This document shows, in pieces, positions 10,838 through 29,729 of a DNA stretch of 64,000 nt. Source of the stretch: Nitrospirota bacterium (lineage in GTDB: Bacteria; Nitrospirota; Thermodesulfovibrionia; Thermodesulfovibrionales; JdFR-86); NCBI GenBank assembly GCA_963721805.1, contig CAVRJY010000004.1, positions 288,516 to 352,515 on the forward strand. The letters run 5' to 3'. The notes under the pieces were generated by a model, which worked only from the letters and a program-made list of their open reading frames with translations, was not told where the DNA came from and searched no databases. A program made the translations under genes and the position numbers. How positions within the stretch are numbered: the first letter of the stretch is position 1; every line of letters begins with the position of its first letter.

Positions 10838-10842
10838 AAGCC

Positions 10843-11349: not shown

Positions 11350-11390
11350 CGTGTGCTCCCTCCTCCTGACCCTGCGGTCATCCATTTATA

Positions 11391-11406
11391 TTCAAAGACC
11401 ATGCCT
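11391..11406 (-). promoter_or_regulatory. Putative sigma-54 (-24/-12) promoter of the fliL operon
   Basis: Minus strand reads AGGCATGGTCTTTGAA (consensus TGGCAC-N5-TTGC), with an IHF-like AATCAATGGGATA and TGAC/GTCA inverted motifs upstream. Confidence 0.5.
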
Positions 11407-11504
11407 GGATCTAGAACTTGATATCCCATTGATTTCTAACGATTTTATTTTTGACGGTCCCACGCACTCCGTCAATCGGCTGACAAAACGCTGGATTCCC
11501 AACT

Positions 11505-11556
11505 GGGGGCCGACTGGCCCCCCCTCACTATTCGCGTGGCCGACCGGCCCCGCTCA
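11505..11556 (+). repeat. REP-like double-hairpin repeat (family R2)
   Basis: GGGGGCCGACTGGCCCCC hairpin followed by TATTCGCG...CCGCTCA; recurs about 12 times in the window. Confidence 0.8.
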
Positions 11557-11647
11557 TTACGGGGCTGCGCCCCACTTGCACCCCCTACGAATGAGGAACA
11601 TAGATTGCCGGAGGGGATGCAAAAGTTACGGAAAGGAATTGAAGATT

Positions 11648-13231
11648 TTAGGAAGAGGTGCCCGTGGCACCCGTGGCACCTGTGGCCCCCTCGACGGGGA
11701 GGAGGACGCGGAAGGTGGTGCCCTTGCCTGTGGTGCTGCGCACCGTGATATCTCCGCCGTGGCGCTTGATGATGCCGTAGCTCACCGGCAGGCCGAGGCC
11801 TGTGCCCTTCCCCACGGGCTTGGTCGTGAAGAACGGCTCGAATATCCGGCCGAGGTTTTCGTCAGCTATGCCCGGGCCGTTGTCAGTGAACTCGGCCTCG
11901 ACGAAGTCCGCCCCCGATGCGTCCCTGGCCACCCGTGTGGTAATGTTCAGTTCGCCGCGGTTGTCCATCGCGTCTACGGCGTTTTGGATGATGTTCAGTA
12001 TGACCTGCTGGATCTGGTTTGAGTCCGCAAAGACCCGCGGGAGCCCCTCGGCGTACGAGGTGGCGATCATCACCTCCCTGAACTTCGACTGGTTGCGCAG
12101 TATCGTGACCGAGGCCGCGATCAGCTTGTTTAGGCTCACTGCCGCGCGCTCGGCCGGGGCCATCCGCGCAAAGCCCAGCAGGTCGCGTATGATCCGGGCG
12201 CAGCGCTCGGTCTGCGTTATGATCGCATCGAGGTCCTCGTGGTCCTCGGGCCGGTCGGCGGGGGTGCGGGCCTTCAGCAGGTGGGCGAAGGTCAGCACCC
12301 CGGTAAGGGGGTTGTTGAGCTCGTGGGCCACGCCGGCCGCCATCCGCCCGAGCGAGGCGAGCTTTTCGGCCCCCAGCATCTGGTCGTGGGCGAGGGCTAT
12401 CTCAGAGGTCTTGCGGTCGACCTCGGCCTGCAGTTGCTCGTTCCAGGTCTCGAGCTTCACGCGGTAGGCCCTGATATCAGAGGCCATCGAGTTGAAGGCC
12501 GAGGCGAGGCGGCCCATCTCGTCGCGGCTTTGGATCCCGATCGGGTGGATGAGCTCGCCCGAGGCGAGCTCCTGCATCCCGCGCCCCAGCGCGGCCATCG
12601 GCTTGGTGACGAACCTGCGAAGGACGAGGTATATCGCCCCGAATACGATCAGCGAGAGCACGACCCCGTAGGCCGCAACGCCAAGCGCGAGCCTCCGCGT
12701 CCCGGCCGTGAGGCGCTCGGCCGATACCGTGAGCCTGAGCACCCCGAGCACAGGCAGGGCCTGGGGGTGCTGGTGGCATGCGGCCGTGAAGCACTGGGGC
12801 TCGTTCGCTATCGGCATGAAGTAGCGCACGACGGGCGCCCCGTCGCTGTCGGCGGCCGGGCCGGTGGCCGAATCCATCGGCGCGGTGACGGCCTCGGTCG
12901 TGCCAACGCGTCCGGCCGAGGAGCTGAACGTCACCCTGCCTGAGGGCGCGATTACGTCTATCGCGCGCACCTCCCTTGCGTTTACCAGCTCCGAAAGCGT
13001 GGCCGAGATCTCGTTACGGAGCCCGCCGAGCATATCGCGCCTGAGGGCGTGGCCGGTGATGTCAGAGGCGAACCGAGCCTCGGCGCGGAGGTTTCCCAGC
13101 ATCACGGACTTTTCGTGGTTGTAAAGCAGCAGGCAGAACACCGCGCCGAAACATGCAGCCACGAGCCCCACGCCTAGGATGAGCCTTCCGGCCAGAGAGT
13201 TTATGGGGTTGTTCACGCCCAATTCTCCCAT
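11648..13231 (-). CDS. Membrane HAMP-domain sensor histidine kinase
   Basis: Two TM helices, HAMP, AGVAHELNNPL H-box, FEPFFTTKPVGKGTGLGL; periplasmic CFTAACH. Confidence 0.92.
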   Translation of the reverse strand: MGELGVNNPINSLAGRLILGVGLVAACFGAVFCLLLYNHEKSVMLGNLRAEARFASDITGHALRRDMLGGLRNEISATLSELVNAREVRAIDVIAPSGRVTFSSSAGRVGTTEAVTAPMDSATGPAADSDGAPVVRYFMPIANEPQCFTAACHQHPQALPVLGVLRLTVSAERLTAGTRRLALGVAAYGVVLSLIVFGAIYLVLRRFVTKPMAALGRGMQELASGELIHPIGIQSRDEMGRLASAFNSMASDIRAYRVKLETWNEQLQAEVDRKTSEIALAHDQMLGAEKLASLGRMAAGVAHELNNPLTGVLTFAHLLKARTPADRPEDHEDLDAIITQTERCARIIRDLLGFARMAPAERAAVSLNKLIAASVTILRNQSKFREVMIATSYAEGLPRVFADSNQIQQVILNIIQNAVDAMDNRGELNITTRVARDASGADFVEAEFTDNGPGIADENLGRIFEPFFTTKPVGKGTGLGLPVSYGIIKRHGGDITVRSTTGKGTTFRVLLPVEGATGATGATGTSS

Positions 13232-13313
13232 ATGGCTTGAGGCAACGTCAATATACAGGGAAAGCTGCTGCAATCGCGGGGGCGACTGCCCCATTGCTTT
13301 GTGCCGTGAAAAA

Positions 13314-13361
13314 GTGAGCGGTACTTCAGCACCGCAATAGGGAGAGGTGCCCGTGGCACCC
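13314..13361 (-). repeat. REP-like repeat (family R2 variant)
   Basis: Reverse complement: GGTGCCACGGGCACC hairpin followed by TATTGCGG...CCGCTCAC. Confidence 0.7.
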
Positions 13362-13434
13362 CCTGTCCACCCGGATAAAAACGCCGGAATGAAAGGGGCC
13401 CTGGACGCCCCGCTGAAGCATGGTATAATTCCGC

Positions 13435-14448
13435 ATGCGGATAGAGTTTTTGATATTCGACCTCGACGGCACTTTAGTGGAGACCTCAGAGGACCTCAGA
13501 GACGCCGTAAACCATGCCGTGACGCCCTTCGGCGCTGGGCCTTACGACGCGCCCGCGACGATCTCGATGGTCGGCGCGGGCATCGGGGAGCTCGTTAGAA
13601 AGGCGCTCGGCCCGGCGCAGGCCGGCCATTACGACGAGGCGTTCGCGCTATTTATGGAGTACTACACCGCGCACGTCGCCGACCACTCGAAGGCGTACCC
13701 GGGTGTGGAGGCCGCTCTGATAGCGCTGAAGGATCTGCGCAAGGCGGTGCTGTCGAACAAAAACGAGGCGCTCTCTAGGCTGCTGCTCGACAAGCTCGGG
13801 CTTTCGAAGCACTTCGACCTGATCGCGGGCGCGGATACGTATGCCGATCTAAAACCCTCGCCGCTTCCGATACTGCGGATGCTCGCCTCGCTCTCGGTGC
13901 CGATCAACCGCGCGATGATGATCGGCGACAGCTCGCAGGACATCGAGGCGGGCAGGCGCGCAGGGCTCCGCACGGTCGGCTGCGCCTACGGGTTTCGAGG
14001 CCGCGCCGCGCTCTCGGCCGCGGACTTCGTGATCGACTCGATCGAGGAGCTTCCGGGGCTGCTCGCCGCATACGAGGGCCCGGGCGAGAGGCGGAAAGAG
14101 GAGCGGCTCCGTCTGCCGGAACCGTTTCGGGAATACCTCAACGCGACCGTGCGCATCGGGGACGAGGACGTGCATGTCGAGGTCGACGAACTGAGCGAGC
14201 ACGGCCTGCGGATCTTCTGCCCGGTGCCGTTTGACGAAGGCACGAAGCGGACGCTGCGCGTCTCGATGCCGCAGTCGCACCAAAAAGAGGTCGGGATCGA
14301 GGCCCTGATCCACCACTGCTCGGACGCCTCCAACAGCACAAGCTTCCGCGCCGGCGGGCAGGTCACGCACGTCGACGACGAACTCCTCTACAGGGTATTT
14401 AAAAACACCTTGAGCTTCATCACGAACCGCGCGGGAAGGGTCTTTTAA
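13435..14448 (+). CDS. HAD-family phosphoglycolate-phosphatase-like enzyme fused to a C-terminal PilZ-like domain
   Basis: FDLDGTL, SNK, KP and IGDS..D HAD motifs; C-terminal ERRKEER and ELSEHG motifs. Confidence 0.8.
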   Translation: MRIEFLIFDLDGTLVETSEDLRDAVNHAVTPFGAGPYDAPATISMVGAGIGELVRKALGPAQAGHYDEAFALFMEYYTAHVADHSKAYPGVEAALIALKDLRKAVLSNKNEALSRLLLDKLGLSKHFDLIAGADTYADLKPSPLPILRMLASLSVPINRAMMIGDSSQDIEAGRRAGLRTVGCAYGFRGRAALSAADFVIDSIEELPGLLAAYEGPGERRKEERLRLPEPFREYLNATVRIGDEDVHVEVDELSEHGLRIFCPVPFDEGTKRTLRVSMPQSHQKEVGIEALIHHCSDASNSTSFRAGGQVTHVDDELLYRVFKNTLSFITNRAGRVF

Positions 14449-14496
14449 GGGGGCGGCTGTCCCGCTCCTGAGAAACATCGCTAGTACAAATATGCC

Positions 14497-15387
14497 CTAG
14501 ATCGCGAGTGCGGCGCGGTTGGCCGCGATGAGCATCGAGCCCTTCTCTAATCCGAGCACGCGCGCGACGACCTCGCACTTCGACTGAAACAGGAATATGA
14601 TCTCGGCCTGATCGTCCCCGAGGAGCGTCTCGAAGTTCCCCTGGCCCTTGCTTATGATCAGCGTGCCGGGGCGGCGGAAACGCTCGACGAACTCCGGAGG
14701 GCTCAGCTCAAGTATAGTCCCGACGCAGTCCGTGCCGTTGTCGATCACCTCGCACGCCTCGTCGAGCCCTATCGCGCGCGCGTCCTCCATCGTAGCGTCG
14801 TTGATGATCGGGCCGCCCTTTGCCACAGCGGTCACGCGCTTGCCCATCCCCGTAAGCGTCTCGATCAGGAGGCGGTCGAATACGGCCTCGCCGGTGTTGT
14901 CGAGCAGGTAGAGGATATCGTCGTGGCGCTTAAGCGCCGCAAGCAGCGCCGCGTATTCGTCGACCTCCAGAGGCCGCGTGAGAGCGCGCTCGACCGTGCC
15001 CTCTATATCGACCGTATCGTAAATACCAAAGTCGATCACGTTGCCGGCTACCGCGATGCGCACGGCGGTATGCAGCGGGTCCTCGCTTGCGTTGATGCGC
15101 GTCTTGAGGCTCGGGTACAGCGCCATGGCCTTGTGGTTGTATTCGTCCTTCACCGCGCGGTAAGGGTCCACGCCGAGGGCCTCGCGGATGGCGCGGTGCA
15201 TGTACGTCGTGCCGTGGGCCGGGGTGGTAGAGATGTCGGTGCGGGTGGCGTGGGCGAGAGCGGCCAGTATAGCGGCCATCGCGCGCGGGTTGCCCTCGAG
15301 CTCGCCGCCGGTGCTAGCCCCCGCGAGCCTCAGCGCTATGACCGATTGCCTGATGAAGCACGGGAAGCAGTCCTCGTGCACCTTCAT
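14497..15387 (-). CDS. Damage-control phosphatase, DUF89/ARMT1-like
   Basis: CFPC, AGNVIDFG, LLDNTGE and ISKGQGNFETL motifs; start is 15387 or 15411. Confidence 0.9.
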   Translation of the reverse strand: MKVHEDCFPCFIRQSVIALRLAGASTGGELEGNPRAMAAILAALAHATRTDISTTPAHGTTYMHRAIREALGVDPYRAVKDEYNHKAMALYPSLKTRINASEDPLHTAVRIAVAGNVIDFGIYDTVDIEGTVERALTRPLEVDEYAALLAALKRHDDILYLLDNTGEAVFDRLLIETLTGMGKRVTAVAKGGPIINDATMEDARAIGLDEACEVIDNGTDCVGTILELSPPEFVERFRRPGTLIISKGQGNFETLLGDDQAEIIFLFQSKCEVVARVLGLEKGSMLIAANRAALAI

Positions 15388-15442
15388 CCGCCTGCCGTCG
15401 AGATATCCCATCAGATATTGTAATCGTACCAGCCGGAGGTAT

Positions 15443-16213
15443 TCAAACGCCGAACATCTGCGAGCATTCGTACCGGCTCGCGACGTGCAGGGCCGGGCCG
15501 CCCGCGCCGAGCACCTCGCGGTGGCACTTAAGCGCGTGGCGCGGGGTGTTGTTCGTCTCGGACAGATGCGCGAGGCAGGCCCATCTAAGGCTGCGGCCAT
15601 GGGCGCTCAACAGTTCGGCGGCCTCGAGGTTCGATATATGCCCGCGCGGGCCCCGGATGCGGCGCTTGAGGTGCTCGGGGTACGGGCCCTCGTCGAGCAT
15701 CTTGGGGTCATAGTTGCTCTCTAAAAACACGGCGTCGAGCCCGGCGATCAGCTCGCCCAAGCCCTCAAACACATGGCCCAGGTCGGTCAGCACCCCAAGC
15801 CTCCGGCCTCCGTATGAGATCACGAAGACCGAGCCCTCGGCAGCGTCGTGCGGGGTGGGGATGCTCTCGACAGTGACCTCGCCTATGCGGATGGCATGGC
15901 CGCGCCTGAATGTGCGGACGTCAGAGAGCTTGCCGAGCGAGCCGGCGGCAGCGTCCATCGTCTTTGCGGTGGCGTAGATCGGCATGCCGAACTTGCGCTG
16001 GAATATCCCGGCCGAGCTTATGTGGTCGCTGTGGTCGTGGGAGATGATGAGCGCGTCGACGCGCGTGATGTCCTCTCCGAGCGAGGCGAGCCGCTCCTTT
16101 GCGCGGATGCCGGAGAGCCCTGCGTCGATCAGGATTCGCACCCCGCCGGCGCGGACGAAGATCGAGTTTCCGTTGCTGCCGGACTGTACCGATGCGGCGT
16201 GGATGCGATGCAT
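15443..16213 (-). CDS. MBL-fold metallo-hydrolase (YycJ/WalJ-like)
   Basis: SGSNGN, SHDHSDH, PHDA, TDLG, LESNYD, GHISN and AHLSETNN motifs. Confidence 0.92.
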   Translation of the reverse strand: MHRIHAASVQSGSNGNSIFVRAGGVRILIDAGLSGIRAKERLASLGEDITRVDALIISHDHSDHISSAGIFQRKFGMPIYATAKTMDAAAGSLGKLSDVRTFRRGHAIRIGEVTVESIPTPHDAAEGSVFVISYGGRRLGVLTDLGHVFEGLGELIAGLDAVFLESNYDPKMLDEGPYPEHLKRRIRGPRGHISNLEAAELLSAHGRSLRWACLAHLSETNNTPRHALKCHREVLGAGGPALHVASRYECSQMFGV

Positions 16214-16224
16214 AGGGTAGATTA

Positions 16225-16968
16225 TCAGCTTTGCGGCGGCTGCATCAACTGATCCCCGGTGGTGCGCGCAAGCGCGATGGCCGTCACCGATGCGGCCCCG
16301 GCGCGCCGGAGCGCGCGGCTGCACTCGCGCATGGTAGTGGTGGTCGTGATCACGTCGTCGAGCAGGATCAGGCGTCTGCCCTTGACCGCGGGCGTCGCCT
16401 TAAACGCGCCGCGCACGTTTTCTATCCTCTGGTGGCGCGAGAGGCCGAGCTGCGGCAGCGTATCGCGCGTCTTTATAAGCGCGTCCATCCAAAGCGGCGC
16501 GCCGGTGATGCGCCCGAGCTCGCGGCCCAGCAGCGCGGTCTGGCTGAACCCGCGCGAAAGCAGCGCGGACTTCGTCATCGGCACCGGCACGACCGCATCG
16601 AACGCCCCGATTAGCGGCATCGTGGCCAGCAGCGCGGCCAGCGGGCGCGCGAGGCGGCGCACAGAGCGGAACTTAAGCTCCGCTATCGCCGCGGCCATCG
16701 GCCCGTCATACGCACCATAGCACAGGGCCTGGTCGAATGCGGGAGGGTCGGCCATGCACTCAAGGCAGGTGTGCGCCCCGGCGGAGTGCAGGGGCTTTGC
16801 GCATATGCTGCATGAAGCGCCCTCAATCCTGCGGATGCCAGCCCAGCAGGCCGGGCATACAGGGGCGGTCGCATGTCCGGTGGCAGGGCCTCCGCAGACC
16901 GGGCAGCGGGCCGGGTATATGAGATCCAGAAGGAAGGAGGCTACGCGAGCTGGAGTTCTGCCTTGCAT
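16225..16968 (-). CDS. comF: ComF family double-zinc-ribbon/PRTase protein
   Basis: Paired CxxC motifs, VPVP, RGFSQ and LLDDVITT. Confidence 0.88.
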   Translation of the reverse strand: MQGRTPARVASFLLDLIYPARCPVCGGPATGHATAPVCPACWAGIRRIEGASCSICAKPLHSAGAHTCLECMADPPAFDQALCYGAYDGPMAAAIAELKFRSVRRLARPLAALLATMPLIGAFDAVVPVPMTKSALLSRGFSQTALLGRELGRITGAPLWMDALIKTRDTLPQLGLSRHQRIENVRGAFKATPAVKGRRLILLDDVITTTTTMRECSRALRRAGAASVTAIALARTTGDQLMQPPQS

Positions 16969-17489
16969 CGTCCGCAGCGCGGCAGCAGGATGCCGACCCT
17001 GTCGAGGCGCACGCGGTTCTTCGTGCCGCAGGCCTGGCAGTCGACTATGATGTATTCGGGCTCGGCGGGGGGAGGCTCGGGCGTGTGCGGGTCGGGAGCG
17101 TGCGGGGCATCGAGGGTCGCCATGGCGGGCTCCGGCGCGGCCTCTGGGGGCGCATCGGTTTCGGCCTCGCCATATACGCCGAGTTCCGCGAGAAGCTCGA
17201 TGAATCTGGCGTCGCGGCTGGTGAGCTCGACCCCCATCCCGTTTTTGACCATCGCAAAGCTCGTCCTCGTCGAGCGGCGCACGGTGCCGCTTATCGAGGA
17301 GCGGGTGCCGTCAGGGAAGATGAGTTCGATATTGGCCGTGCTGCCGACAGTCATTGGCGTGTGCGTGCGGATGAATATCCCGTGGGCGGAGATGTTGCTC
17401 GATATGCCCCTGATCGTGCGGCCATTCACCGTGAACTCAGCCTCGATCCGGCGCATGTAGCGCTTGCTGTCCTGCCTTTTCTGCGCCAT
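16941..17489 (-). CDS. PilZ-domain protein with C-terminal TrxC-type zinc ribbon
   Basis: KRQDSKR and NISAHG motifs; C-terminal CQACGTKNRV...PRCGRCK. Confidence 0.75.
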   Translation of the reverse strand: MAQKRQDSKRYMRRIEAEFTVNGRTIRGISSNISAHGIFIRTHTPMTVGSTANIELIFPDGTRSSISGTVRRSTRTSFAMVKNGMGVELTSRDARFIELLAELGVYGEAETDAPPEAAPEPAMATLDAPHAPDPHTPEPPPAEPEYIIVDCQACGTKNRVRLDRVGILLPRCGRCKAELQLA

Positions 17490-17599
17490 ACCCCCCCCCC
17501 GCTACAAAATTGTAACATTTATTTCTAGAGATAGAAATAGGGGTAGTGTGTATGCCATTTCATTCATGGCTTTATTGCTTCATTACTCGCCTAAGGTAT

Positions 17600-18607
17600 T
17601 TACAGCCTTTCTGTGTTAATATCAGTGCTGGTTACTTTATAGGTAGTTGTCTCTTTGCATCTCACATACCCTTTTTCATTGAAAATCACATAATTATCTC
17701 CGGTTGTCAATGAACTTTTAAATGTCACCCCATTAAACCCAAGATGCTTAAAGTACTCACAAAGATATTGACTTGGAAGATACTCAAGTGACGCCTCGCG
17801 TGGTAAAACTGGCTTGGAAAGCTCTTCACCAAAACTAATTAACATAGGCCTTAACTCATAAAGCTTTTTTAGATCTTCCTCTCCGACTATAAAAGGTGAT
17901 ATTGCATATCTCGGGTTTCTCAGGTCTGCTAGATTTAAATCCTTAACTGATTTAAACTCCGCGACTGTAACGGTATCGCCTTTATGAGGGCGCACTTCAG
18001 CAATAGCAGTTTTATAGTCAGACGAAGCGTATAGATATGGGATTCCAAAGGGGTTTGCCCTTCCACCTGATGTTTCATCAGAAGGGGGTTTACTCATTTC
18101 AGGGCAAGTATAACTTCGGTCTTCTAGGTTTATCCTTGCGCGAAATAGTTTTTTTGGCGATTCCTCATGTAAGTTGAAAAATAATTCATCAAATTGACCG
18201 ACATCAAATTTCTTTGGAAAATAGCGGTTTGAGTGTTTAAGTTCTTCTCGGAATTCATTCCATTGTATAATTTTACTTTGATCCTGAGATCTTGCAGGAA
18301 TATATTTATTCCTTGTGAGCGTTTTGTCTTTAAAAATCTCCGATATAAGGCTGTTTATTGTAGACCTCTTTGGCAGCTTGAAAATAGCCCAATCATCCTG
18401 AATTTGTTCGCTCAAATATTTTCCTTCAACTCCGTCAGACGTAACATATAAATCAATAATAGGCTGAAACAAATCGGATAGTGAACTTGGATAAATTATT
18501 GGAGTTTTCTTAGTTCCACAGAATGAGCAGTCACCCTTTCCAATTTTCTTTCTTTTGATGAATTGTGACAGGAAATCATCACTGAAACATTCAGGGCAAC
18601 AAAACAT
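17600..18607 (-). CDS. RES-domain protein with N-terminal Cys-rich domain (putative NAD+-targeting toxin)
   Basis: GRANPFGIPYLY, AIAEVR, YLPSQYLCE and FKSSL carry the R-E-S residues; CCPEC...CSFC N-terminus; AT-rich. Confidence 0.88.
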   Translation of the reverse strand: MFCCPECFSDDFLSQFIKRKKIGKGDCSFCGTKKTPIIYPSSLSDLFQPIIDLYVTSDGVEGKYLSEQIQDDWAIFKLPKRSTINSLISEIFKDKTLTRNKYIPARSQDQSKIIQWNEFREELKHSNRYFPKKFDVGQFDELFFNLHEESPKKLFRARINLEDRSYTCPEMSKPPSDETSGGRANPFGIPYLYASSDYKTAIAEVRPHKGDTVTVAEFKSVKDLNLADLRNPRYAISPFIVGEEDLKKLYELRPMLISFGEELSKPVLPREASLEYLPSQYLCEYFKHLGFNGVTFKSSLTTGDNYVIFNEKGYVRCKETTTYKVTSTDINTERL

Positions 18608-18610
18608 AAA

Positions 18611-19552
18611 TTACCCCTTTCTCGTGATGAAATCTGCCATTAATTCGATATGGTGTTGCATGGAAAGCTTCTTAATGTATCCAAGGCCGGGGAAATGCTG
18701 TCTTTTATAGAGTTCTAAATATTCCTTAGCTGCGTCTGACTTAAACATGTGTGTGTTATGCCGCGAATATTCTTTGTGCAGTTTTTCCAATGCTTCGAAA
18801 AATTTCCCAGCAGTGTTTGTTGGGCTTTCGCCATGCTCAGAAACGAAATGTCTTATAAACATATCATTGTCATCGTCAATATATGTCATATGGATAGCCA
18901 CTGCATATGCAGGGCCGCCCGATGTGCGATATTCATCGCCAACAATCAAAAAATCTCCAAACCCACTCATATTCTCGTCGGGAAACGTTACATGTAAGTC
19001 GGAGAAATGTTCAACCTCTGGATAATCAATGTTCCTTTTTACATTACTTACATTAAACCCATCTCTAACCAGTACACAATTATGATGGCTTTCAAAATGC
19101 TTACGATAAAGTTTTCCAGCGCTTTTCTCTCTAAATACATGTCGCTCAATGTGCGACAAGCCGCTTGTTATTTCAGATAAGTGTCTTCCTTCTTTATATC
19201 CATCGTGAATTAAGGTTATCCTCTGCCTTCGTTCAACAAAACTTTTGACATGATTAGGTATGCTTTTTTCGTTAACAATATAGCCCTTTGACATATTACT
19301 CTTGCCAGAGTGCTTATCAGCGAGCTCATCCAACTCAGATGACTTATTTGTTAGGTTGCCAACCTGCGGATTAACTATCAATACAAATTGAACTTTGCGC
19401 TTATTTAGCTCGTCAAGAGTACGTTCAAATGGCGGTGAAATTTCATTAACTGGTTCAATAATAGGGCAAATATTACTCGCGGCTAGAAGCTCAGCGTTTT
19501 CTTTTAAAAGAATTAGTTCGTACTGCTTTCCTCTTAAGTATGGATAGTACAT
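18611..19552 (-). CDS. Sce7725 family protein (beta-protein-like)
   Basis: MYYPYLRGKQYEL, PIIEPV, NPQVG, GFGDF, GGPAYAVAIH and GLGYIKKLSMQHH motifs. Confidence 0.85.
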   Translation of the reverse strand: MYYPYLRGKQYELILLKENAELLAASNICPIIEPVNEISPPFERTLDELNKRKVQFVLIVNPQVGNLTNKSSELDELADKHSGKSNMSKGYIVNEKSIPNHVKSFVERRQRITLIHDGYKEGRHLSEITSGLSHIERHVFREKSAGKLYRKHFESHHNCVLVRDGFNVSNVKRNIDYPEVEHFSDLHVTFPDENMSGFGDFLIVGDEYRTSGGPAYAVAIHMTYIDDDNDMFIRHFVSEHGESPTNTAGKFFEALEKLHKEYSRHNTHMFKSDAAKEYLELYKRQHFPGLGYIKKLSMQHHIELMADFITRKG

Positions 19553-19561
19553 TTCGGTTAA

Positions 19562-20446
19562 TTATGCATGGATCTTATTCATTTTGCAACTGAGAATCTC
19601 ACAGAACCTATTGGCATACCCTTCATCATTTGGTGATCCAAGCGCTAACGTCTTAAGCGATTTGGGTACACTATCAAGGAACCCCATGAATCTTTTTTGA
19701 TCTCTTCGCTTTAAAGTCTTAACCATGAGATCATGAACTATTTCAGGGGGAATAGCGCTAAACAATTTTTTGCATTCACTATAAATTTGCGTATTTGGAA
19801 CATTTGGTTCGAAGTCAAAGTATTCTCTAACGATCGAAAGATATTCATTCTTTCTAAGTGAATCAAAAATTACGCTAGGCTTCACTTGCGTCTTCCCTGA
19901 AATGGGGTTCCTTATAGTCTTTAAAGTGTATCTCTCAGTTAGCACTATCAAGCCAATATTCTTTGCTATGACTCTGTCGATCCTCTCAGCTTGCGATTCA
20001 GAAGTTACGACATTTACTAAATCAAAAACACTTGAATACGCAGCGATTTGATTATCCAGCCTATCTAAAGAATCATAATCTGTCTTAATTTCATAAACTG
20101 TTGACGTTCCATTTAAAATAACAACATCTGCCTTGCAGTTGGCTGCTCTAAATTCAGTAAGCATGTATGATGTATTCAAGGAATGCCTGCCAAGCAATAT
20201 TTTATTAGTGATAGCATTTTTATATACGTATTCATTCCGATAGGACTTAATAAGGTTATCGTGTAACCATTCAAAGAAATGACTAATAGTTTCGCTATAA
20301 ATATTCTTGGATATGTTGCTATTGGCAATTATTTCGGAAAAATATCTTGATTTGCGAGATTCGACTAAATCATTAATCACTACCGGTGAAAAAAGGGATG
20401 CAAGCGCTGGAAGGGCACTTTCTTCAAGAGAATACTCACGCGTCAT
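19562..20446 (-). CDS. Sce7726 family protein (PD-(D/E)XK nuclease-like)
   Basis: RNEYVYKN, EFR...KAD...NG...YEIKT..D.L.RL..Q...Y...F motifs. Confidence 0.85.
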   Translation of the reverse strand: MTREYSLEESALPALASLFSPVVINDLVESRKSRYFSEIIANSNISKNIYSETISHFFEWLHDNLIKSYRNEYVYKNAITNKILLGRHSLNTSYMLTEFRAANCKADVVILNGTSTVYEIKTDYDSLDRLDNQIAAYSSVFDLVNVVTSESQAERIDRVIAKNIGLIVLTERYTLKTIRNPISGKTQVKPSVIFDSLRKNEYLSIVREYFDFEPNVPNTQIYSECKKLFSAIPPEIVHDLMVKTLKRRDQKRFMGFLDSVPKSLKTLALGSPNDEGYANRFCEILSCKMNKIHA

Positions 20447-20559
20447 TCAAAATATTAGTATATAAATACTAATGAAATCAATTAGCGCAAATAAATTATT
20501 GGCAATACCGTGCTTCTGCCATTTGTATGCTTCTTGTGGTTCCCTTTTACACCCCGGTC

Positions 20560-21759
20560 TGTAAAGGTTACGCTCTTACCGGACAGTATCAGGCTGGAAA
20601 AAGCAGGCGGCAGCCAGCCCTTCCATCGGTTAGAATGTTTCACCACAAAACACAGACCGAAGGAGGAAGGGCATGACTGCCAAAGAAAAGATATCACAAG
20701 GGAGGCTTTCAATGCTTCAGCTGGCCGAGAGGCTCAGGAACGTGTCGGAGGCCTGTCGCCGCCGGGGGGTGAGCCGCAGCCAGTTTTACGAGTACAAGCG
20801 GGCGTTTCAGGAGCAGGGGTTTGCGGGGCTCGCGGACCTTCCGCCGATAGCGCGTAGCTGTCCCCACAAGACGCCTGAGGAGGCCCGCAAGCGAGTGATC
20901 GAGATGAGCCTTGCTCACCCCCGGTGGGGGAAGCAGCGCATCTTCGAGCACCTGCTTCTGGAGGGCATATTGGTGCGTCCCTCAACTGTGTATCGCATCC
21001 AGGTTCGCGAGGGGCTGGAGTCGAAGGCCAAGCGCATCCTCCGGCTTGAGCAGGAGGCTAACGGCAAGGAGATCGAGCTAACGGAGGAGCAGGTCAAGCT
21101 CATCGAGCGGGCCAATCCGTGCTTCAGGGAAAGGCATGTGGAGAGCGCATATCCGGGCTATCTGCTCAGCCAGGACACCTTCACGGTGGGCAAGCTCAAG
21201 GGCATCGGGACCGTGTATCTGCAGGCCGTGGTGGACACGTACGGCTCTTATGCCTTCGGCAAGCTGTACACGTCGAAGAGGCCCGAGACGGCGGCCGACG
21301 TGCTCTACGACCGCGTGCTGCCGTTTTACGAGAACCATGGCATCAGGGTCCAGCATGTCCTGACGGACAACGGCTCGGAGTACTGCGGCAAGCTGCTGCG
21401 GCATCCGTACGAGCTGTTTCTGGCGCTTCACGACATCGCGCATCGAAGGACGAAGGTGGCGACACCGAGGACAAACGGATTCGTGGAGCGGTTTAATCGC
21501 ACCATCCTGGACGAGTTCTTCTCGGAGACGTTCAGGTACCGGTTCTACGCATCGCTCGATGAGCTGCAGTATGACCTCGACCGGTGGCTGCACCACTACA
21601 ACAACGAGCGCCCTCACAAGGGCTATCGCAACATGGGCAGACGGCCAATAGAAACTATCGAGCTGGGCAAAAAGCTAAGACAGAAAGCTGAGGAGGAGGC
21701 CGCCTGATCAGTGCGACCGATGAGATGGAAAACTGTCCGGAGAGCACTGGACTTTTACA
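20560..21759 (+). mobile_element. IS481-family insertion sequence (1200 bp)
   Basis: 28-bp imperfect TIRs with TGT...ACA ends: TGTAAAGGTTACGCTCTTACCGGACAGT (20560-20587) and ACTGTCCGGAGAGCACTGGACTTTTACA (21732-21759). No clear target duplication. Confidence 0.9.
20673..21707 (+). CDS. IS481-family transposase
   Basis: N-terminal HTH; DDE core QDT...TDNGSEY...NGFVERFNRT; YNNERPH. Confidence 0.95.
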   Translation: MTAKEKISQGRLSMLQLAERLRNVSEACRRRGVSRSQFYEYKRAFQEQGFAGLADLPPIARSCPHKTPEEARKRVIEMSLAHPRWGKQRIFEHLLLEGILVRPSTVYRIQVREGLESKAKRILRLEQEANGKEIELTEEQVKLIERANPCFRERHVESAYPGYLLSQDTFTVGKLKGIGTVYLQAVVDTYGSYAFGKLYTSKRPETAADVLYDRVLPFYENHGIRVQHVLTDNGSEYCGKLLRHPYELFLALHDIAHRRTKVATPRTNGFVERFNRTILDEFFSETFRYRFYASLDELQYDLDRWLHHYNNERPHKGYRNMGRRPIETIELGKKLRQKAEEEAA

Positions 21760-21762
21760 CTA

Positions 21763-21802
21763 GGAACTGGTTCCTAGGAACTGGTTCCCAGGAACCAGTT
21801 CC
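21763..21802. repeat. Three tandem GGAAC-NN-GTTCC palindromes (14-bp period)
   Basis: GGAACTGGTTCC-TA-GGAACTGGTTCC-CA-GGAACCAGTTCC. Confidence 0.7.
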
Positions 21803-22112
21803 CATGGCGCAGTTCCGACCTGTTGGTTTATCATCGCGCATGATAATGGCAGACTCTAAAAATAGCATCCTGCTGCGAGGGGCTCTGATCGCGGCATCCT
21901 GTGTCATCGGGACGAAAAACGTACTCAACGTAGCGCTGCTACGCCTCCGTTCCTTTTTCGCCCGCTTCCTTGTCTGCCACAATCTCGCTCCCTCTCGCTT
22001 ACGAATACTATTTTCAGAGGCTGCCTGTATACAGACTAATTTAGCGAGGTCGGAGATCGGGAGCGCCAAGCGCTCGATGGCTCGTAGAAATGGTTTGAGT
22101 GCTCGGCTGGCG

Positions 22113-22295
22113 CATCCGAACAAAACCCCAAAAACAGGCCAAAACATCCGAACATCCGAACACGGGCAAAATCAAAAAACTCGGTTTTCCGCTGGGTTAC
22201 GCCCTATTTTGCGCCCAACATCCGAACAAAATCGGCAAAAACGCGCACGCACGCGCGCGGAATGCATATGTATACCTAAGCGCGAGCATCCGAAC
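22113..22295 (+). repeat. Five CATCCGAAC direct repeats (iteron-like)
   Basis: Copies start at 22113, 22145, 22153, 22219 and 22287. Confidence 0.7.
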
Positions 22296-22307
22296 GGGCT
22301 TTTTCAG

Positions 22308-22503
22308 ATCATGCCGTTGACCATTCCAATCATGCCGTTGACCACGAGGCGCGGAGGCAGCGGCTGGGCCGCGTACTTCGCCAAGCGCGAGAAATCGTGT
22401 CAGACTAGGAACGGCGAGGAAAACGTCCGAGGTGTACTGAGACGTACATTGAGGACGGATTTCCGAAGCCGTGACAACGTATCACGCGAGTTTCGCGCGC
22501 TTT
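22308..22503 (+). repeat. Long GTAC-centred hairpin element (family R1), copy A, with duplicated 5' motif
   Basis: ATCATGCCGTTGACCA occurs twice (22308, 22329), then AAGCGCG...GTGTAC-TGAGAC-GTACA...CGCGCTTT. Confidence 0.88.
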
Positions 22504-22553
22504 CCAAAAGGCTCCAATTGCATTCAACGAGTTCCGCCCGATATAATCGCACG

Positions 22554-23282
22554 ATGGCCGATAAACCAGATACCCATACAGAGCGGATCAGCAGAATGTT
22601 CGCCTCTATCGCTGGTAGATACGACTTCCTGAACCGCCTCCTGAGCCTCCGCCGCGACGTGGCATGGCGGCGCGCCTCGGCGCGTGCGCTGAGCTTCGGC
22701 ACTACCAACCGCTTCCTCGATGTCGCGACCGGCACGGCGGACCTCGCGCTGGACGTGCTGCGCAGCCATCCGGGCGTGACCGCGCTCGGGGTGGACCTCG
22801 TGGAGGAACTCATGGAGATAGGCCGCGTAAAGGCCGCCCGCGCGAGGATGGCAGCGCGCATCAGCTTCGTCCGCGGCGACGCGCTTGCGCTGCCTGTCGA
22901 GGACGCCTCGTTTGATGCGGCCGGGATCGCCTTCGGCATCCGCAACATCCCGGATCGCGCCGCAGCGCTCCGCGAGATGAGGCGTGCGGTCGTGCCCGGC
23001 GGGACGGTGCTGGTGCTGGAGCTATCGGCATACGCGGTCGGGCCGTTTCAGGGGATGCACAGGTGGTATCTGAAGGCCGTGCTCCCGCGTCTGGCGCGGC
23101 TGTTCACGCACGACCCGGGCGCATACGAGTACCTGACTCGCTCGATCCTCGGGTTCCCCTCGCCGGAGGGCTTCTCGGCGATCATGCGAGAGGCCGGGCT
23201 CGAGGCGGTGAGCGCCAGGCCGCTTACGCTCGGCGCGGCGTACCTCTATACCGGCAGGAGGCCCGCGCAAAAAACCACTTGA
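22554..23282 (+). CDS. ubiE: Ubiquinone/menaquinone C-methyltransferase UbiE/MenG
   Basis: MFASIAGRYDFLNRLLS, LDVATGTAD, FGIRN and AYEYL motifs; true start is the ATG at 22554. Confidence 0.93.
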   Translation: MADKPDTHTERISRMFASIAGRYDFLNRLLSLRRDVAWRRASARALSFGTTNRFLDVATGTADLALDVLRSHPGVTALGVDLVEELMEIGRVKAARARMAARISFVRGDALALPVEDASFDAAGIAFGIRNIPDRAAALREMRRAVVPGGTVLVLELSAYAVGPFQGMHRWYLKAVLPRLARLFTHDPGAYEYLTRSILGFPSPEGFSAIMREAGLEAVSARPLTLGAAYLYTGRRPAQKTT

Positions 23283-23322
23283 CGTTTCGGGCCGCGAAAG
23301 CAGATAATGGATACCGGTTAAA

Positions 23323-23670
23323 ATGAAGCCAACAAAACCACACGATAAGGCGGTATACGAATTGCAGGCCGAGGTCTGCAAGACGATCGCCAACCCTAAG
23401 CGCATCGAGATCATCCACTCGCTGAAGGCGGGGGAGCGCACGGTCTCGGAGCTCGTCGCGATATTGGGCGTGCCGAAGGCCAACGTCTCGCAGCACCTGG
23501 CGATGATGCGCAGCAAGGGCGTGCTCAAGGCCCGGCGCGAGGGAGTGAACATCTACTACAGCCTCACGAACCCGAAGGTCACGCAGGCCTGCCTGCTCAT
23601 GCGCGAGGTCCTGACGGAGCAGATCAAGGAACGCAAGAAGACCCTCGTCAGAAGAAAGTCCGCGGACTGA
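23323..23670 (+). CDS. ArsR/SmtB family transcriptional regulator
   Basis: KTIANPKRIEII, VSELV, NVSQHL and REG..IYY motifs. Confidence 0.92.
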   Translation: MKPTKPHDKAVYELQAEVCKTIANPKRIEIIHSLKAGERTVSELVAILGVPKANVSQHLAMMRSKGVLKARREGVNIYYSLTNPKVTQACLLMREVLTEQIKERKKTLVRRKSAD

Positions 23671-23722
23671 GAACCCCTCACGCGGCAGCCTCAACCTCCC
23701 CGAGCAAAAAAGTGAATCCCCG

Positions 23723-24004
23723 ATGATAGTAGTGATCGAATCGCCGCCGCAATCCGTGCGCGCACAGGCCGGTGTGAGGGCCGCGGCCGACCTCACGGCG
23801 GACATCGCGCTCGTGGGCGATGCGGTGGGGCTCGCGAGGCGCGGGGCGCTGGAGGGGTTTTGCGGCACGGCGCACGCGCTTGAGGACGACGTGCGCGAGC
23901 GCGGCATACCGGAGGGCGAGCTTGAGCGCGGGGTGCGGCTTATCGACCGGGCGGAGCTTAGGCGCCTGATCGAGGCCGAGGGCCGCGTGGAGGGCGAGTT
24001 CTAG
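23723..24004 (+). CDS. DsrE/DsrH(TusB)-like small protein
   Basis: LVGDAV and ALEDDVRERGI resemble DsrH/TusB; follows the ArsR gene. Confidence 0.6.
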   Translation: MIVVIESPPQSVRAQAGVRAAADLTADIALVGDAVGLARRGALEGFCGTAHALEDDVRERGIPEGELERGVRLIDRAELRRLIEAEGRVEGEF

Positions 24005-24013
24005 CCGGGCGGC

Positions 24014-24187
24014 CTATTTGGGACCCGGGTTGCGCACGCCGCCGACGGGAGCTGCGGATCCCGGCGCGCTATATTCGGGCGCGTCATACCCGGGCCTGAC
24101 CTCGATCGGCTTGGCGCAGCCAGCCACCGACACGATAAGGCCTATCACCGCCACCAGCACGATCAGCCGATTAGTCATTTCCCGCAT
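24014..24187 (-). CDS. Small putative lipoprotein
   Basis: AAGGAG RBS, signal peptide with VAGC lipobox. Confidence 0.55.
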   Translation of the reverse strand: MREMTNRLIVLVAVIGLIVSVAGCAKPIEVRPGYDAPEYSAPGSAAPVGGVRNPGPK

Positions 24188-24237
24188 CTCCTTTGCCACT
24201 CGGTTTCGACTTATCGTACCACGTTGCGGGGCTGCTG

Positions 24238-24606
24238 TCATCCCTTGAGCGCATCGGCTATCGCCTCGCGCACGGCAGGGTGCCGCTCGCTCTGAAGCGC
24301 AGCGCGCAGATGGGCCATCGCAGCATCGCTGCCGATCAGCTCGAGCAGGTACGCGGCGTCGCCCCTGATGGACGGGTTTTCGTGCGAGAGCCCGGCCGAG
24401 GCTATGGCGTCCACCGTGCGCTCGATCTCGTCCCGGAACTCGGGCAGGAGCTCGTCGACGAGCGCAGCCACGCCGATGCGCACGCGGCCGCGTTCGTCCG
24501 TGATGAGGGCGGGCAGGTGCTTGAAGAGAGCGGGATCGGCCCGGAACATATCGACGATGTTCTCAAGGAACCCGCCTTCCATGTAGCTGGATATCATATC
24601 AATCAT
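24238..24606 (-). CDS. HEAT-repeat protein
   Basis: DERGRVRIG, ENPSIRGDAAYLL and VREAIADAL repeats. Confidence 0.75.
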   Translation of the reverse strand: MIDMISSYMEGGFLENIVDMFRADPALFKHLPALITDERGRVRIGVAALVDELLPEFRDEIERTVDAIASAGLSHENPSIRGDAAYLLELIGSDAAMAHLRAALQSERHPAVREAIADALKG

Positions 24607-24703
24607 GGGTTAATGATAAGCTTTTTCCCCGCTCTTAGGAAAGCGAGTGACGCATTAGGAATGCAACCACACCTCGAATAGGGGAGGGGCCAAGTCGGCC
24701 CCC

Positions 24704-26551
24704 CTACATCTCGACGCGCGCGGTGACGCCATGCAGCTTGTCCGGCGGCATGTTATGGAAGTGCACGAACGAGGGCGTGACGCGCTTGATCATCGCGAAC
24801 AAGCCCCAGATCGGGTTCGTGGTCATGATCTCCTCGACGCCGTAAAAGATCGACTGGGTCCTGATCCCGTTTTCCTCAAGCAGGGCCGCGATGTCCGCGA
24901 CCTCCATGTAGCCCATCTGTATCTCGAAGGAACGCAGGCCCTTGGCGAAGTCCTCCTTGAAGAACGCGGCCACGCCGTATGGGTCATCGCGCTTGAGGAT
25001 GTTTACGAGTATGTTGTCGTCGTATATGATCCCGTTGGTGAACATCGTGCGTATTATGTACGGGGGGATGAGCTTCGGGTCGCGGACGAAGAAGAGCGCC
25101 GTCCCCTCGATCCTGCGGCGCACCCAGTACTCGCGCTTGTACGTCAGGAGGAACTGCTCGATCGAGATCGGCTTGATCGCCTCAAACAGCCTCCGCTGGC
25201 CCTTGTGGTATACCGTCACTATCGTAAGCGGCACCGAGGCCAGAAGCAGCGACCAGTAGCCGCCGTACGGGATCTTGTGCATCGAGGAGCCGAGGTAGCA
25301 CAGCCCCACCGCGGTGACGAGCACCGAGACCGCGAACTTCACGCGCGAGCCCTTTAAGTGGAATATCCACGACATGAATATCCCGGTGATGACCATCACG
25401 GCGTTGACCGCCAGGCCGTATGCGGCCGCCAGCCGCGCTGACTCGCCGAAGTATATCATCACAACCACGACAGCCACGAGAAGCAGCCAGTTGACCGAGC
25501 CTATATAGATCTGCGCCCGAAGTTCGGAGGAGGTGTTTTCCACCTTCATCAGCGGCATGATGCCGGTGTTGATCGCCTGGTATACGACCGAGTACATACC
25601 GCTTATCATGGCCTGCGAGGCGATCGTAGTCGCGGCCACGCTCAGGAGCACAAACGGCACGTAGAGCAGCGGGGACTGGTGGCGGAACATCTCGAACATG
25701 ATCGACTTCGTCTCGGGGTGGTCGAGCAGGTATGCGCCCTGGCCCATGTAATTTAGCACCAGCGCCACGACGACGAAGTACCAAGCCGTGACTATCGGCT
25801 TGCGGCCCATGTGGCCCATGTCCGCGTAAAGCGCCTCGCCCCCGGTCGCACACAGCAGGGCCTCGCTCAGCACGATGAACCCGGCGAGACCGTTTTCGGC
25901 GAGGAACCGCAAGGCGTACATCGGGTTTGCGGCCGCAAGCAGCTCCGGCCTGTCCATGAGCGCCCCGATGCCCGAGAACGCTATCACCACGAACCATATG
26001 AGCATGATCGGCCCGAAGACCCCGGCCACGCGCTCTGTCCCCCGGTGCTGAAACACGAAGAGCAGCACCGCTATCACGATCGCGATGAATACGATCGAGG
26101 GGCCTCCGAGGCCCTCCCAGCCGGGTATCAGGGCCGCGCCCTCCACCGCGCTTAAGATCGAGATCGCGGGCGTTATCACGCCGTCGCCGATCAGGAGCGA
26201 TATCGCAAGGTAGCTAAGCGCGGTGACCACACCGGCGGCCTTCCCGGTCTTAAGCAGGCTGTGCAGGATCTCGCTCAGCACGATGCTGCCGCCCTCGCCC
26301 TTCCGGCTCAGGCTCATCGCAAGCCAGGCGTACTGCGTGCTTACCAATATCATGATCGTCCAGAACACGAGCGATACGACGCCCATCACGTTGGCCTGCG
26401 TCGGCGGCAGTATAAGGAATATGACCGTGAGGGTATAGATCGGGCTCGTGCCTATGTCCCCGAACACGAGGCCGAGGGACTTCAAGGTCGCGGAGGCGAG
26501 ATTGGGGCCGGGCTTAATGGCGGGGTCCTCCGCCGGGGCGATTATAAGCAA
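24704..26551 (-). CDS. kup: KUP/HAK/KT potassium uptake protein
   Basis: GLVFGDIGTSPIY, GEGG, GDGVITPAISILSAVEG and TGGEALYADMGH motifs; start codon uncertain. Confidence 0.96.
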   Translation of the reverse strand: MLIIAPAEDPAIKPGPNLASATLKSLGLVFGDIGTSPIYTLTVIFLILPPTQANVMGVVSLVFWTIMILVSTQYAWLAMSLSRKGEGGSIVLSEILHSLLKTGKAAGVVTALSYLAISLLIGDGVITPAISILSAVEGAALIPGWEGLGGPSIVFIAIVIAVLLFVFQHRGTERVAGVFGPIMLIWFVVIAFSGIGALMDRPELLAAANPMYALRFLAENGLAGFIVLSEALLCATGGEALYADMGHMGRKPIVTAWYFVVVALVLNYMGQGAYLLDHPETKSIMFEMFRHQSPLLYVPFVLLSVAATTIASQAMISGMYSVVYQAINTGIMPLMKVENTSSELRAQIYIGSVNWLLLVAVVVVMIYFGESARLAAAYGLAVNAVMVITGIFMSWIFHLKGSRVKFAVSVLVTAVGLCYLGSSMHKIPYGGYWSLLLASVPLTIVTVYHKGQRRLFEAIKPISIEQFLLTYKREYWVRRRIEGTALFFVRDPKLIPPYIIRTMFTNGIIYDDNILVNILKRDDPYGVAAFFKEDFAKGLRSFEIQMGYMEVADIAALLEENGIRTQSIFYGVEEIMTTNPIWGLFAMIKRVTPSFVHFHNMPPDKLHGVTARVEM

Positions 26552-26569
26552 TATGCATGGAGCGTGTCC

Positions 26570-26690
26570 CTTCCCGGGCCTGCGAGGTTAGCTGACGGGC
26601 TCGGGCTGGAAGTGCCCTATCCATTTCCGGAATGCGCCCCATTACTGCTGGTTCCCCCGCCCCACCTCTGCGGTGGGCTCGGCCATCACC
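26570..26690 (-). ncRNA. c-di-AMP (ydaO/yuaA) riboswitch
   Basis: Minus strand reads GGGAACC...TGGGGCGCATTCC...TAGGG...CCCGAGCCCGTCAGCTAACCTCGCAGGC, matching the ydaO core, directly 5' of kup. Confidence 0.88.
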
Positions 26691-29723: not shown

Positions 29724-29729
29724 ATCCAA

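Follow-up and report, generated by a model that had tools for sequence, protein, structure and literature searches.

A stretch of 64,000 nucleotides (hereafter the window) from a Nitrospirota bacterium (GenBank assembly GCA_963721805.1, contig CAVRJY010000004.1, positions 288,516 to 352,515) carries an operon of three genes, coding for a nuclease of the Sce7726 family, a protein of the Sce7725 family and an enzyme with a RES domain. With a probability of roughly 0.6, and by homology to other systems, we regard this operon as a horizontally acquired, self-contained abortive-infection conflict cassette of the kind known from gop-beta-cII of satellite phage P4 and from the 'TIM-B' systems, in which an aRES-type RES enzyme replaces Gop. 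By analogy to the systems that have been tested, the third gene product would be an abortive effector, a phosphorylase of nicotinamide adenine dinucleotide (NAD+), and the second gene product would control it. The parts and the general idea are already present in the available text of the 2026 preprints on aRES and TIM-B; new here, as far as that text extends, is their fixed co-directional combination, in which a cII-type nuclease and a divergent TIM-B barrel accompany an aRES-type effector.

The cassette consists of three co-directional open reading frames (ORFs) on the minus strand, separated in the ORF list of the window by 9 nt and then by 3 nt: gene 1 (A; 20446..19562, 294 aa), a Sce7726-family PD-(D/E)XK protein of presumed restriction-endonuclease fold, gene 2 (B; 19552..18611, 313 aa), a Sce7725-family protein with a predicted triosephosphate-isomerase (TIM) barrel, and gene 3 (C; 18607..17600, 335 aa), the putative aRES-type effector. 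A sequence-only reading of the same DNA had described three tightly coupled genes, far more AT-rich than the host, and both statements proved exact, the GC content being 0.32-0.40 in 500-nt segments starting at 17500-20000 versus 0.60-0.70 in both flanks. The whole foreign low-GC cassette (~17495-20559, ~3.07 kb) lies between the start codon of a PilZ gene (17489) and an insertion sequence (IS) of IS481 type and holds the three genes and nothing else. It is real, intact and present as a single copy in its own genome.

Gene 3 was matched by the Pfam model RES (PF08808) over residues 162-313 (1.5e-16, 61.2 bits, above cut-off) and by HEPN_RES_NTD1 (PF18870) over residues 22-130 (1.5e-7, 32.2 bits, cut-off 27.4). 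Positions invariant in 16 RES proteins were C4, C7, C27, C30, R156, R158, G182, R183, N185, P186, E204 and S298, where the four cysteines of gene 3 form a 4-Cys zinc ribbon and R183 lies within GRxNP; R183, E204 and S298 are presumably the name-giving R-E-S triad. The intact RES residues and the cysteine-rich N-terminus noticed in the sequence-only reading are therefore among the invariant positions, and gene 3 has, as far as can be judged from its sequence, a zinc ribbon/NTD1 plus RES architecture with the R/E/S residues intact. A zinc ribbon has been noted for some NTD1-RES fusions (Anantharaman et al., 2013, PMC3710099). The AlphaFold2 (AF2) model of gene 3, with a mean predicted local distance difference test (pLDDT) of 86.2, found MbcT as best match in Foldseek (6fkg, 8.5e-5), followed by NatT, Xre-RES and ParT; a sequence search of the Protein Data Bank (PDB) gave no meaningful match, and no similarity to P4 Gop was detected by BLASTP.

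Under the name aRES, stand-alone proteins of 300-600 aa with RES and PF18870 have been described, which protect E. coli and convert NAD+ to nicotinamide and ADP-ribose (ADPR)-1''-phosphate (Osterman et al., bioRxiv 10.64898/2026.01.28.702374). With RES, PF18870 and 335 aa, gene 3 falls within this domain definition, and it shares its predicted RES fold with MbcT, an NAD+ phosphorylase. Unlike aRES, stated in the available text of that preprint not to be operonically associated with other genes, gene 3 stands in an operon, at a distance of 3 nt from the Sce7725 gene, and the triad is conserved. Seven proteins with RES and PF18870 (360-440 aa, 24-36% identical to gene 3) occurred in a sample of the phylum, none of them with Sce7725 or Sce7726 alongside; the RES proteins of the triads are shorter than these stand-alone forms (333-356 aa). 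The RES catalytic domain and fold are common to gene 3 and the toxins of the Xre-RES, MbcTA, NatRT and ParST pairs as well. In contrast to those pairs, no Xre/MbcA/ParS-type antitoxin is adjacent, the neighbours being Sce7725 and PilZ, and gene 3 has the N-terminal zinc ribbon and NTD1. A gene with an Xre_MbcA_ParS_C domain was found near a single related locus (L012), ~3.3 kb away.

Gene 1 was recognized by the NCBIfam model NF033832 (sce7726_fam; 8e-58, 195.4 bits, above the curated cut-off of 70) and by the PADLOC model 'cll' (PDLC02989; 1.9e-23), to which P4 cII itself matches at 3e-113. The PADLOC models cll, beta and gop represent phage P4's own proteins, and the cII gene is annotated 'sce7726 family protein' in the record of satellite phage P4; direct comparison of gene 1 with P4 cII by BLASTP yielded 28% identity over 111 residues (E 2e-13). 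When triad-type proteins were aligned with P4 cII and related proteins (23 sequences in all), E98, D107, E119, I120, K121, D125, R129 and Q133 were invariant. The AD...EIK motif of PD-(D/E)XK type noticed earlier is thus real, and by sequence gene 1 is a cII-family PD-(D/E)XK protein with intact catalytic residues. A PDB sequence search with gene 1 found no meaningful match. The triad-type nucleases carry a conserved N-terminal extension of ~70 residues, which is absent from P4 cII and four convergent Beta-linked proteins among the six Beta-linked ones aligned; the sixth (L022) aligns only weakly, over a shorter stretch. To call Sce7725 and Sce7726 a pair of unknown function, as in the sequence-only reading, is outdated, since Sce7726 is the family of P4 cII and hence of the tested gop-beta-cII system.

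Gene 2 matched the NCBIfam model NF033831 (sce7725_fam) at 1.5e-95 (320.5 bits, above the curated cut-off of 60) and remained without Pfam match at E <= 0.01 and without PADLOC match at E <= 0.1. Hence, of the PADLOC and profile searches suggested for the operon, the nuclease returned a known defence component ('cll'), but the barrel did not match 'beta' and gop was not matched. Seventeen Sce7725 proteins compared with Pfam at E <= 10 gave scattered weak matches, none of them to PF14350, the family of P4 Beta; they included Spherulin4, CutC and PTE, all of which we take to be TIM-barrel families. The AF2 model of gene 2, built from 17 sequences, is a TIM barrel (pLDDT 86.3, predicted template modelling score, pTM, 0.88) and aligned in VIA-align with many barrels at Z 10.3-11.9. 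The longest aligned span was obtained with the archaeosine tRNA-guanine transglycosylase (TGT) 1iq8 (239 residues, Z 11.6), and Cap10 (9ntn) aligned over 228 residues (Z 10.8).

Kinship with P4 Beta was invisible to direct BLASTP, which found no similarity between gene 2 and Beta, and emerged from the comparison of profiles with hhalign. Seventeen Sce7725 proteins against eight Beta proteins aligned end-to-end over 299 columns (E 3.8e-4, probability 36%); 153 Sce7725 sequences, taken from a deep profile search with 1,532 matches, against 128 Beta sequences reached 89.2% (E 2.2e-6) over 290 co-linear columns. Among 13 controls on the Beta alignment, the reversed one gave 0.6%, six column shuffles at most 0.4% and six shuffles of 20-column blocks at most 4.0% (E at least 0.011). 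The 8-sequence Beta alignment has 14 invariant positions, and seven of them fall on positions that are invariant in Sce7725 (Sce7725/Beta: Y2/Y10, P4/P12, E12/E20, P30/P37, D200/D241, A274/G303, H301/H332), and R7/R15, K294/K325 and H300/H331 are conserved as well in both deep alignments. In a protein-language-model atlas the Pfam-bearing cluster nearest to gene 2 was PF14350 (score 0.75), which is taken as a lead only. From the profile comparisons we conclude that Sce7725 represents a divergent sister family of Beta_protein, homologous to PF14350 and outside its model. The nuclease, the NAD+-depleting effector and the role in abortive infection or defence proposed in the sequence-only reading fit these homologies. 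For Sce7725, we prefer a TIM-barrel protein, perhaps TGT-like and probably enzymatic, to the adaptor or sensor of that reading.

The gop-beta-cII system of P4, which we assume to be listed in DefenseFinder as 'Rst_gop_beta_cll', has in common with the window cassette a cII/Sce7726-family PD-(D/E)XK protein, a Beta-like TIM barrel beside a toxic effector (predicted in the window cassette) and the format of a small three-gene unit on mobile elements. The window cassette differs in having no Gop (no PADLOC gop match) and a RES enzyme in its place, in a barrel outside both PF14350 and the PADLOC 'beta' model, in the additional ~70-aa N-terminal region of its nuclease, and in an effector gene located downstream of the barrel, where the effector gene of P4 is located upstream. 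Protection by the P4 system against lambda and P1 has been demonstrated, as has the toxicity of Gop when Beta is missing (Rousset 2022, PMC9122126); the cell death caused by the system is triggered by the phage gene orf184 (bioRxiv 10.1101/2023.04.06.535777). PD-lambda-2, composed of a HigB-like toxin, a helix-turn-helix (HTH)-peptidase and a 'P4 antitoxin'-like protein (Vassallo 2022, PMC9519451), is likewise a three-gene unit resembling toxin-antitoxin (TA) modules and including a Beta-like protein. It differs from the window cassette in having neither RES nor cII nuclease, and the PADLOC PD-Lambda-2_C models, which match canonical Beta proteins, are not matched by Sce7725.

In a purely computational study, Li, Burroughs and Aravind (bioRxiv 10.64898/2026.10.19.760177) unified PF14350 with TIM barrels like those of TGT, DpdA and Cap10 as TIM-B, proposed systems of TIM-B with RES, GNAT, restriction endonuclease (REase) and other effectors, assigned TIM-B the role of a constitutive negative regulator and predicted a nucleobase-transfer reaction. 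That preprint equates TIM-B with PF14350, whereas Sce7725 lies outside PF14350, and its main text, figures and supplements aside, contains neither 'sce7725' nor 'NF0338' nor 'Sorangium'. Of the traits by which TIM-B systems are recognized, homology of the barrel to P4 Beta was found for gene 2, remotely and outside PF14350, and adjacent co-directional effectors of the listed types were found on both sides, the RES gene 3 nt downstream and the REase gene 9 nt upstream of the barrel. A third trait is close kinship of the barrel with TGT, DpdA and Cap10, visible in a C-terminal hairpin and helix and an equivalent active site; here the matches of gene 2 to 1iq8 and 9ntn tie within ~1 Z unit with those to unrelated barrels. 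A canonical TIM-B operon encountered in the survey (L025; G096:C160:4186-8223) encodes an M78/IrrE-like peptidase (418 aa), a PF14350 Beta (361 aa; PADLOC PD-Lambda-2_C, 2e-69) and a RES protein (437 aa, no PF18870), in this order, and has the effector downstream of the barrel like the window triad. As to the claim of an uncharacterised system, a triad with a barrel outside PF14350 is unnamed in the literature found, as far as its available text extends, but the parts are known from gop-beta-cII, aRES and TIM-B; the novelty is therefore reduced, not removed.

The triad is a conserved unit. Eighteen genome loci with gene 2 were found, in Marinimicrobia, Victivallaceae, Bacteroidales, Deltaproteobacteria/Geobacteraceae, Shewanella, Xanthomonas, Gallionellaceae and Fibrobacter, and 17 of them keep the order A, B, C and the strand; in the eighteenth the contig ends ~960 nt past B. 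One locus (L018) has B split by a frameshift, and in three genome loci genes are cut by contig ends. Sce7725 occurred in two of 41 genomes of relatives, the window's own included, and in four of 401 genomes of the phylum, all four as triads. A further 95 loci were examined with hidden Markov model (HMM) searches, 15 of them from IMG/VR and 80 retained out of 467 confirmed metagenome stretches (a sample biased to closer relatives, with at least 38% identity). A+B+C were present in 80, B+C with <300 nt upstream in five, A+B with <300 nt downstream in five, and A+B without C in five, i.e., the triad order is kept in 80 of the 85 assessable metagenomic or viral loci. The Sce7725 profile matched 1,532 cluster representatives (clustering at 50% identity), and in metagenomes it was found in at least 467 stretches.

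The five loci with A+B and no C have an intact B in three cases (L103, L107, L110) and a truncated one in two (L161, L162). In two metagenome contigs (L107, L110) Sce7726 is followed by Sce7725 and then by a convergent unrelated gene, with no RES gene, so the third gene is not indispensable for the occurrence of the pair; the two IMG/VR sequences (L161, L162) carry a full-length Sce7726 gene, then Sce7725 remnants of 161 and 133 codons, and no RES gene. The nuclease-barrel pair retained in three of 85 assessable loci would suit a modification-restriction-like function, in which a TGT-like barrel, in the manner of DpdA, replaces or alters a base of DNA or RNA, nucleic acid lacking this mark is attacked by the cII-type nuclease, and RES serves as a fail-safe suicide arm. 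The nuclease gene stands first in the operon with its E...D...ExK residues intact, TGT gave the longest span among the TIM-barrel matches and Cap10 matched as well, and the preprint on TIM-B ties these barrels to TGT, DpdA and Cap10 and predicts nucleobase transfer (bioRxiv 10.64898/2026.10.19.760177). The pair without RES is rare, however, genes for deazapurine synthesis or other substrate supply are missing from the cassette, the likeness to TGT is inseparable by Z-score from that to generic TIM barrels, and the role of Beta in P4, neutralisation of a membrane toxin, does not resemble restriction (PMC9122126; bioRxiv 10.64898/2026.10.19.760177). We therefore consider such a function quite improbable.

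A single case of effector swapping is provided by an E. faecium plasmid (L063; NZ_CP019972.1, 80354-82561) with a distant Sce7725 (32% identity, NF033831 3e-101), which is preceded by an unrecognised 229-aa gene and followed by a GNAT acetyltransferase gene; the 229-aa protein is not recognisably Sce7726 (hhalign 4.6%). 'Listeria phage LM 4-14-1' (L066; UNVERIFIED_ORG) shows the ORF layout of this plasmid locus at identical offsets and, judged from these ORF offsets alone, may be the same plasmid DNA. The only longer form found, a 761-aa protein of 'Tuber magnatum' (P0271), carries PF26915 (P4 cII) and PF08808 (RES), and its match to Sce7725 has a coverage of 93%. It was rejected as a real fusion; its contig measures 2.6 kb, and most likely it is a bacterial triad whose three ORFs were merged by a eukaryotic gene caller in a fungal assembly.

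Mobile elements carry the triad repeatedly. Plasmids of Moraxella and Shinella are annotated with sce7726, sce7725 and a 'RES family NAD+ phosphorylase' in succession, an integrative and conjugative element (ICE) of Salmonella houtenae carries an equivalent triad, and an integrative and mobilizable element (IME) of P. aeruginosa lists RES, sce7725 and sce7726 genes, as annotation only (PMC9394441). In a faecal phage scaffold of unverified status, a DUF2971 gene comes after the triad. B was matched in 15 of 72,556 plasmid records and in three of 50,697 'phage' records. The triad is hence widespread, occurring in many phyla, on plasmids, an ICE and an IME, and this distribution is also what would be expected of an addiction module resembling TA pairs, which stabilises its mobile elements by means of a RES toxin and Sce7725 as neutraliser and has no dedicated anti-phage function. 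Toxin-last order and coupling of the genes agree with such a module, the RES toxins of the Xre-RES and MbcTA pairs, retrieved by Foldseek, are classical TA toxins, many loci are solitary insertions among housekeeping genes, and Gop and Beta were first described as a TA-like pair (PMC9122126). We nevertheless rate addiction as unlikely, because TA-like modules built of the same parts (gop-beta-cII, PD-lambda-2, aRES) protected against phages when tested, according to the available accounts, a nuclease with intact catalytic residues would be superfluous for it, and the window cassette lies in the chromosome, where the ORF list and the Pfam searches show no genes of a plasmid or ICE adjoining it.

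If the abortive-infection cassette proposed here functions as its homologues suggest, the TIM-barrel protein would hold the RES enzyme off in the uninfected cell, either by direct binding or by a TGT-like base transfer that modifies the enzyme or yields a small product. A phage cue would break this control and the RES enzyme would degrade NAD+; the products would probably be nicotinamide and ADPR-1''-phosphate, as with aRES and MbcT, and phage growth would no longer be sustained by the infected cell. The nuclease might either sense DNA or act on invading DNA as a further effector. The position of the toxin gene last, behind gaps of only a few nucleotides, suits coupled translation in which the regulator is made before the toxin. 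Modelling of the complex, as the sequence-only reading had recommended, was carried out for genes 2 and 3 and gave a co-folding score of 0.41, compared with 0.00 for the best of three controls; the runs agreed in at least 92% of contacts, with a partner pLDDT of at least 83. The co-folding mark is reached by 116 of 157 solved complexes and two of 215 mismatches, and at scores of 0.60 or below by 18 of the 157 solved complexes and both mismatches, so that contact between the two proteins is weakly supported by the model.

A more specific version, which we consider doubtful, would make Sce7725 an enzymatic antitoxin that continuously masks an aRES-type NAD+ phosphorylase by TGT-like base transfer, through a covalent nucleobase mark or a small inhibitory product; phage interference would then lead to NAD+ destruction, and the cII-type nuclease would form an independent, DNA-directed arm. 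If true, the cassette would provide immunity with two arms and be switched by an enzyme of nucleic-acid-modifying type acting on a protein or metabolite, and it would explain what P4 Beta has done since 1990.

The genomic neighbourhood was surveyed in 94 flank ORFs of the 18 genome loci, with PADLOC matches counted at E <= 1e-10 and within 5 kb. Known or candidate defence genes were found in five of the 18 (L003, L014, L016, L017, L019), the matches including a type I restriction-modification system with a GmrSD-like HEC-05, the reverse transcriptase RT_UG19 of a DRT system, PDC-S01 twice, PDC-M41B and PDC-S20; two 'mad2' matches are generic methyltransferases. Pfam revealed transposase genes beside the triad in three of the 18 loci (L011, L018, L019) and RadC/HNH in the flanks of L004/5, and three of four annotated plasmid or ICE records had a Tn3 transposase or an integrase. 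Seven loci (L002, L006-L010, L013) had housekeeping neighbours only. Co-occurrence in defence islands had been named as a check on the sequence-only reading; the association with such islands is only moderate.

Several observations weigh against an abortive-infection cassette of this kind. Thirteen of the 18 loci have no PADLOC gene inside 5 kb, and none of these proportions carries a background rate; about one third of the loci, the window included, sit among housekeeping genes. The link between gene 2 and Beta is one of remote homology (89%) and not of family membership, since Sce7725 fails to reach the models of Pfam PF14350, PADLOC 'beta' and PD-Lambda-2_C. The matches of gene 2 to TGT and Cap10 lie within ~1 Z unit of those to many unrelated TIM barrels, and the top Foldseek matches of its model are glycoside-hydrolase barrels only (best E 8e-4). 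The arrangement deviates from that of P4, because the window nuclease gene is first and co-directional, whereas P4 cII is convergent and overlaps the end of beta, a convergent layout found in P4 and five of seven Beta loci. As aRES works alone, RES defence does not generally depend on the two additional genes. In PD-lambda-2, according to the available text, the third, Beta-like protein is needed for defence and not for toxin neutralisation (PMC9519451), and since it is no antitoxin there, 'negative regulator' may be the wrong role; by this analogy the part played by Beta-like proteins may lie in triggering and not in neutralisation. Finally, the IS lies 113 nt upstream of gene 1, and the promoter may have been cut.

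These 113 nt, an AT-rich leader from the start codon of gene 1 to the end of the IS (20447..20559, minus strand), are the only remaining room for a native promoter. They contain one sigma-70-like match on the minus strand (20522..20495), although shuffled sequence gives as many matches of this type as the region does. The IS481-type element itself (20560..21759, plus strand, 1200 bp) encodes a transposase with rve, rve_3 and HTH_32 domains (Pfam), has terminal inverted repeats of 28 nt, is present in 10 identical copies in the genome and forms the left border of the cassette as a resident outside the system. The idea that it belongs to a composite transposon with the cassette as cargo was dropped; of the 10 identical copies in the genome, only one flanks the cassette. 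Each of seven other copies examined has a target duplication of 7-8 bp, and the copy at the cassette border has none; hence the junction did not arise from simple insertion and may stem, for example, from IS-mediated recombination or an adjacent deletion. It might be supposed that the cassette is a decaying or silent passenger, captured by such a rearrangement and no longer expressed or functional in this host; the missing duplication, the proximity of the IS to the start codon of gene 1 and decayed copies elsewhere (L018 frameshifted, L161 and L162 truncated) would agree with this. Yet none of the three ORFs is shortened, the residues invariant in their families are all intact, and the AT-rich leader remains, even though its promoter-like match is no more than shuffles give, and a silent passenger appears highly improbable to us.

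Four of the seven other IS copies sit in the same repeated sequence (cataccaca...ccccggaa, the IS, ccccggaac.agtcaatagg; among L044-L051), and the flanks of the remaining copies hold palindromes of GGAAC/GTTCC type. Based on both, the element seems to target a dispersed repeat resembling repetitive extragenic palindromic (REP) sequences.

The flanking genes recognized by Pfam are all of housekeeping type, namely PilZ (16941-17489), a ComF-like phosphoribosyltransferase and a UbiE methyltransferase, which agrees with the earlier description of an insertion among housekeeping genes next to an IS481. The UbiE domain begins at codon 289 of a 523-codon ORF at 21711, which is probably an over-call. 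No tRNA gene was found in 10000-30000, no direct repeats flanking the cassette were found in a repeat search of its borders, and no match to PF14350 was found in the window's own genome (an assembly of 94% completeness). The synteny of PilZ and ComF is kept in six relatives, with PilZ identities of 29-41% (tblastn), and UbiE is absent from the 1.5-kb flanks of PilZ-ComF in all six; given this absence and the distance of the relatives, a clean empty site is not demonstrable. In one genome of the same family that has a triad, the triad and PilZ-ComF are located on different contigs.

The end of gene 3 is only 110 nt upstream of the PilZ start codon, which implies that the native promoter region of PilZ is now foreign DNA. 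The PilZ protein shows a weak C-terminal match to a zinc ribbon of Thioredoxin-2 type (residues 151-177, E 0.0012, below cut-off). On the other side, the ~0.8 kb from the IS to the UbiE domain (21760-22560) have a GC content of 0.52-0.55 and no protein-family match; they contain a perfect tandem of CTAGGAACTGGTTC x2 within a palindrome (21760-21816), four repeats of CATCCGAACA type (22113-22296) and a 21-nt tandem repeat (22303-22344).

The triad joins aRES and TIM-B, two findings of 2026, in one operon. It offers a natural system in which to study the restraint and release of a RES enzyme and the chemistry of Beta-type barrels, and it would extend the models of defence finders to a family that has been missed so far, of which PADLOC v2 recognises only the nuclease, as 'cll'.

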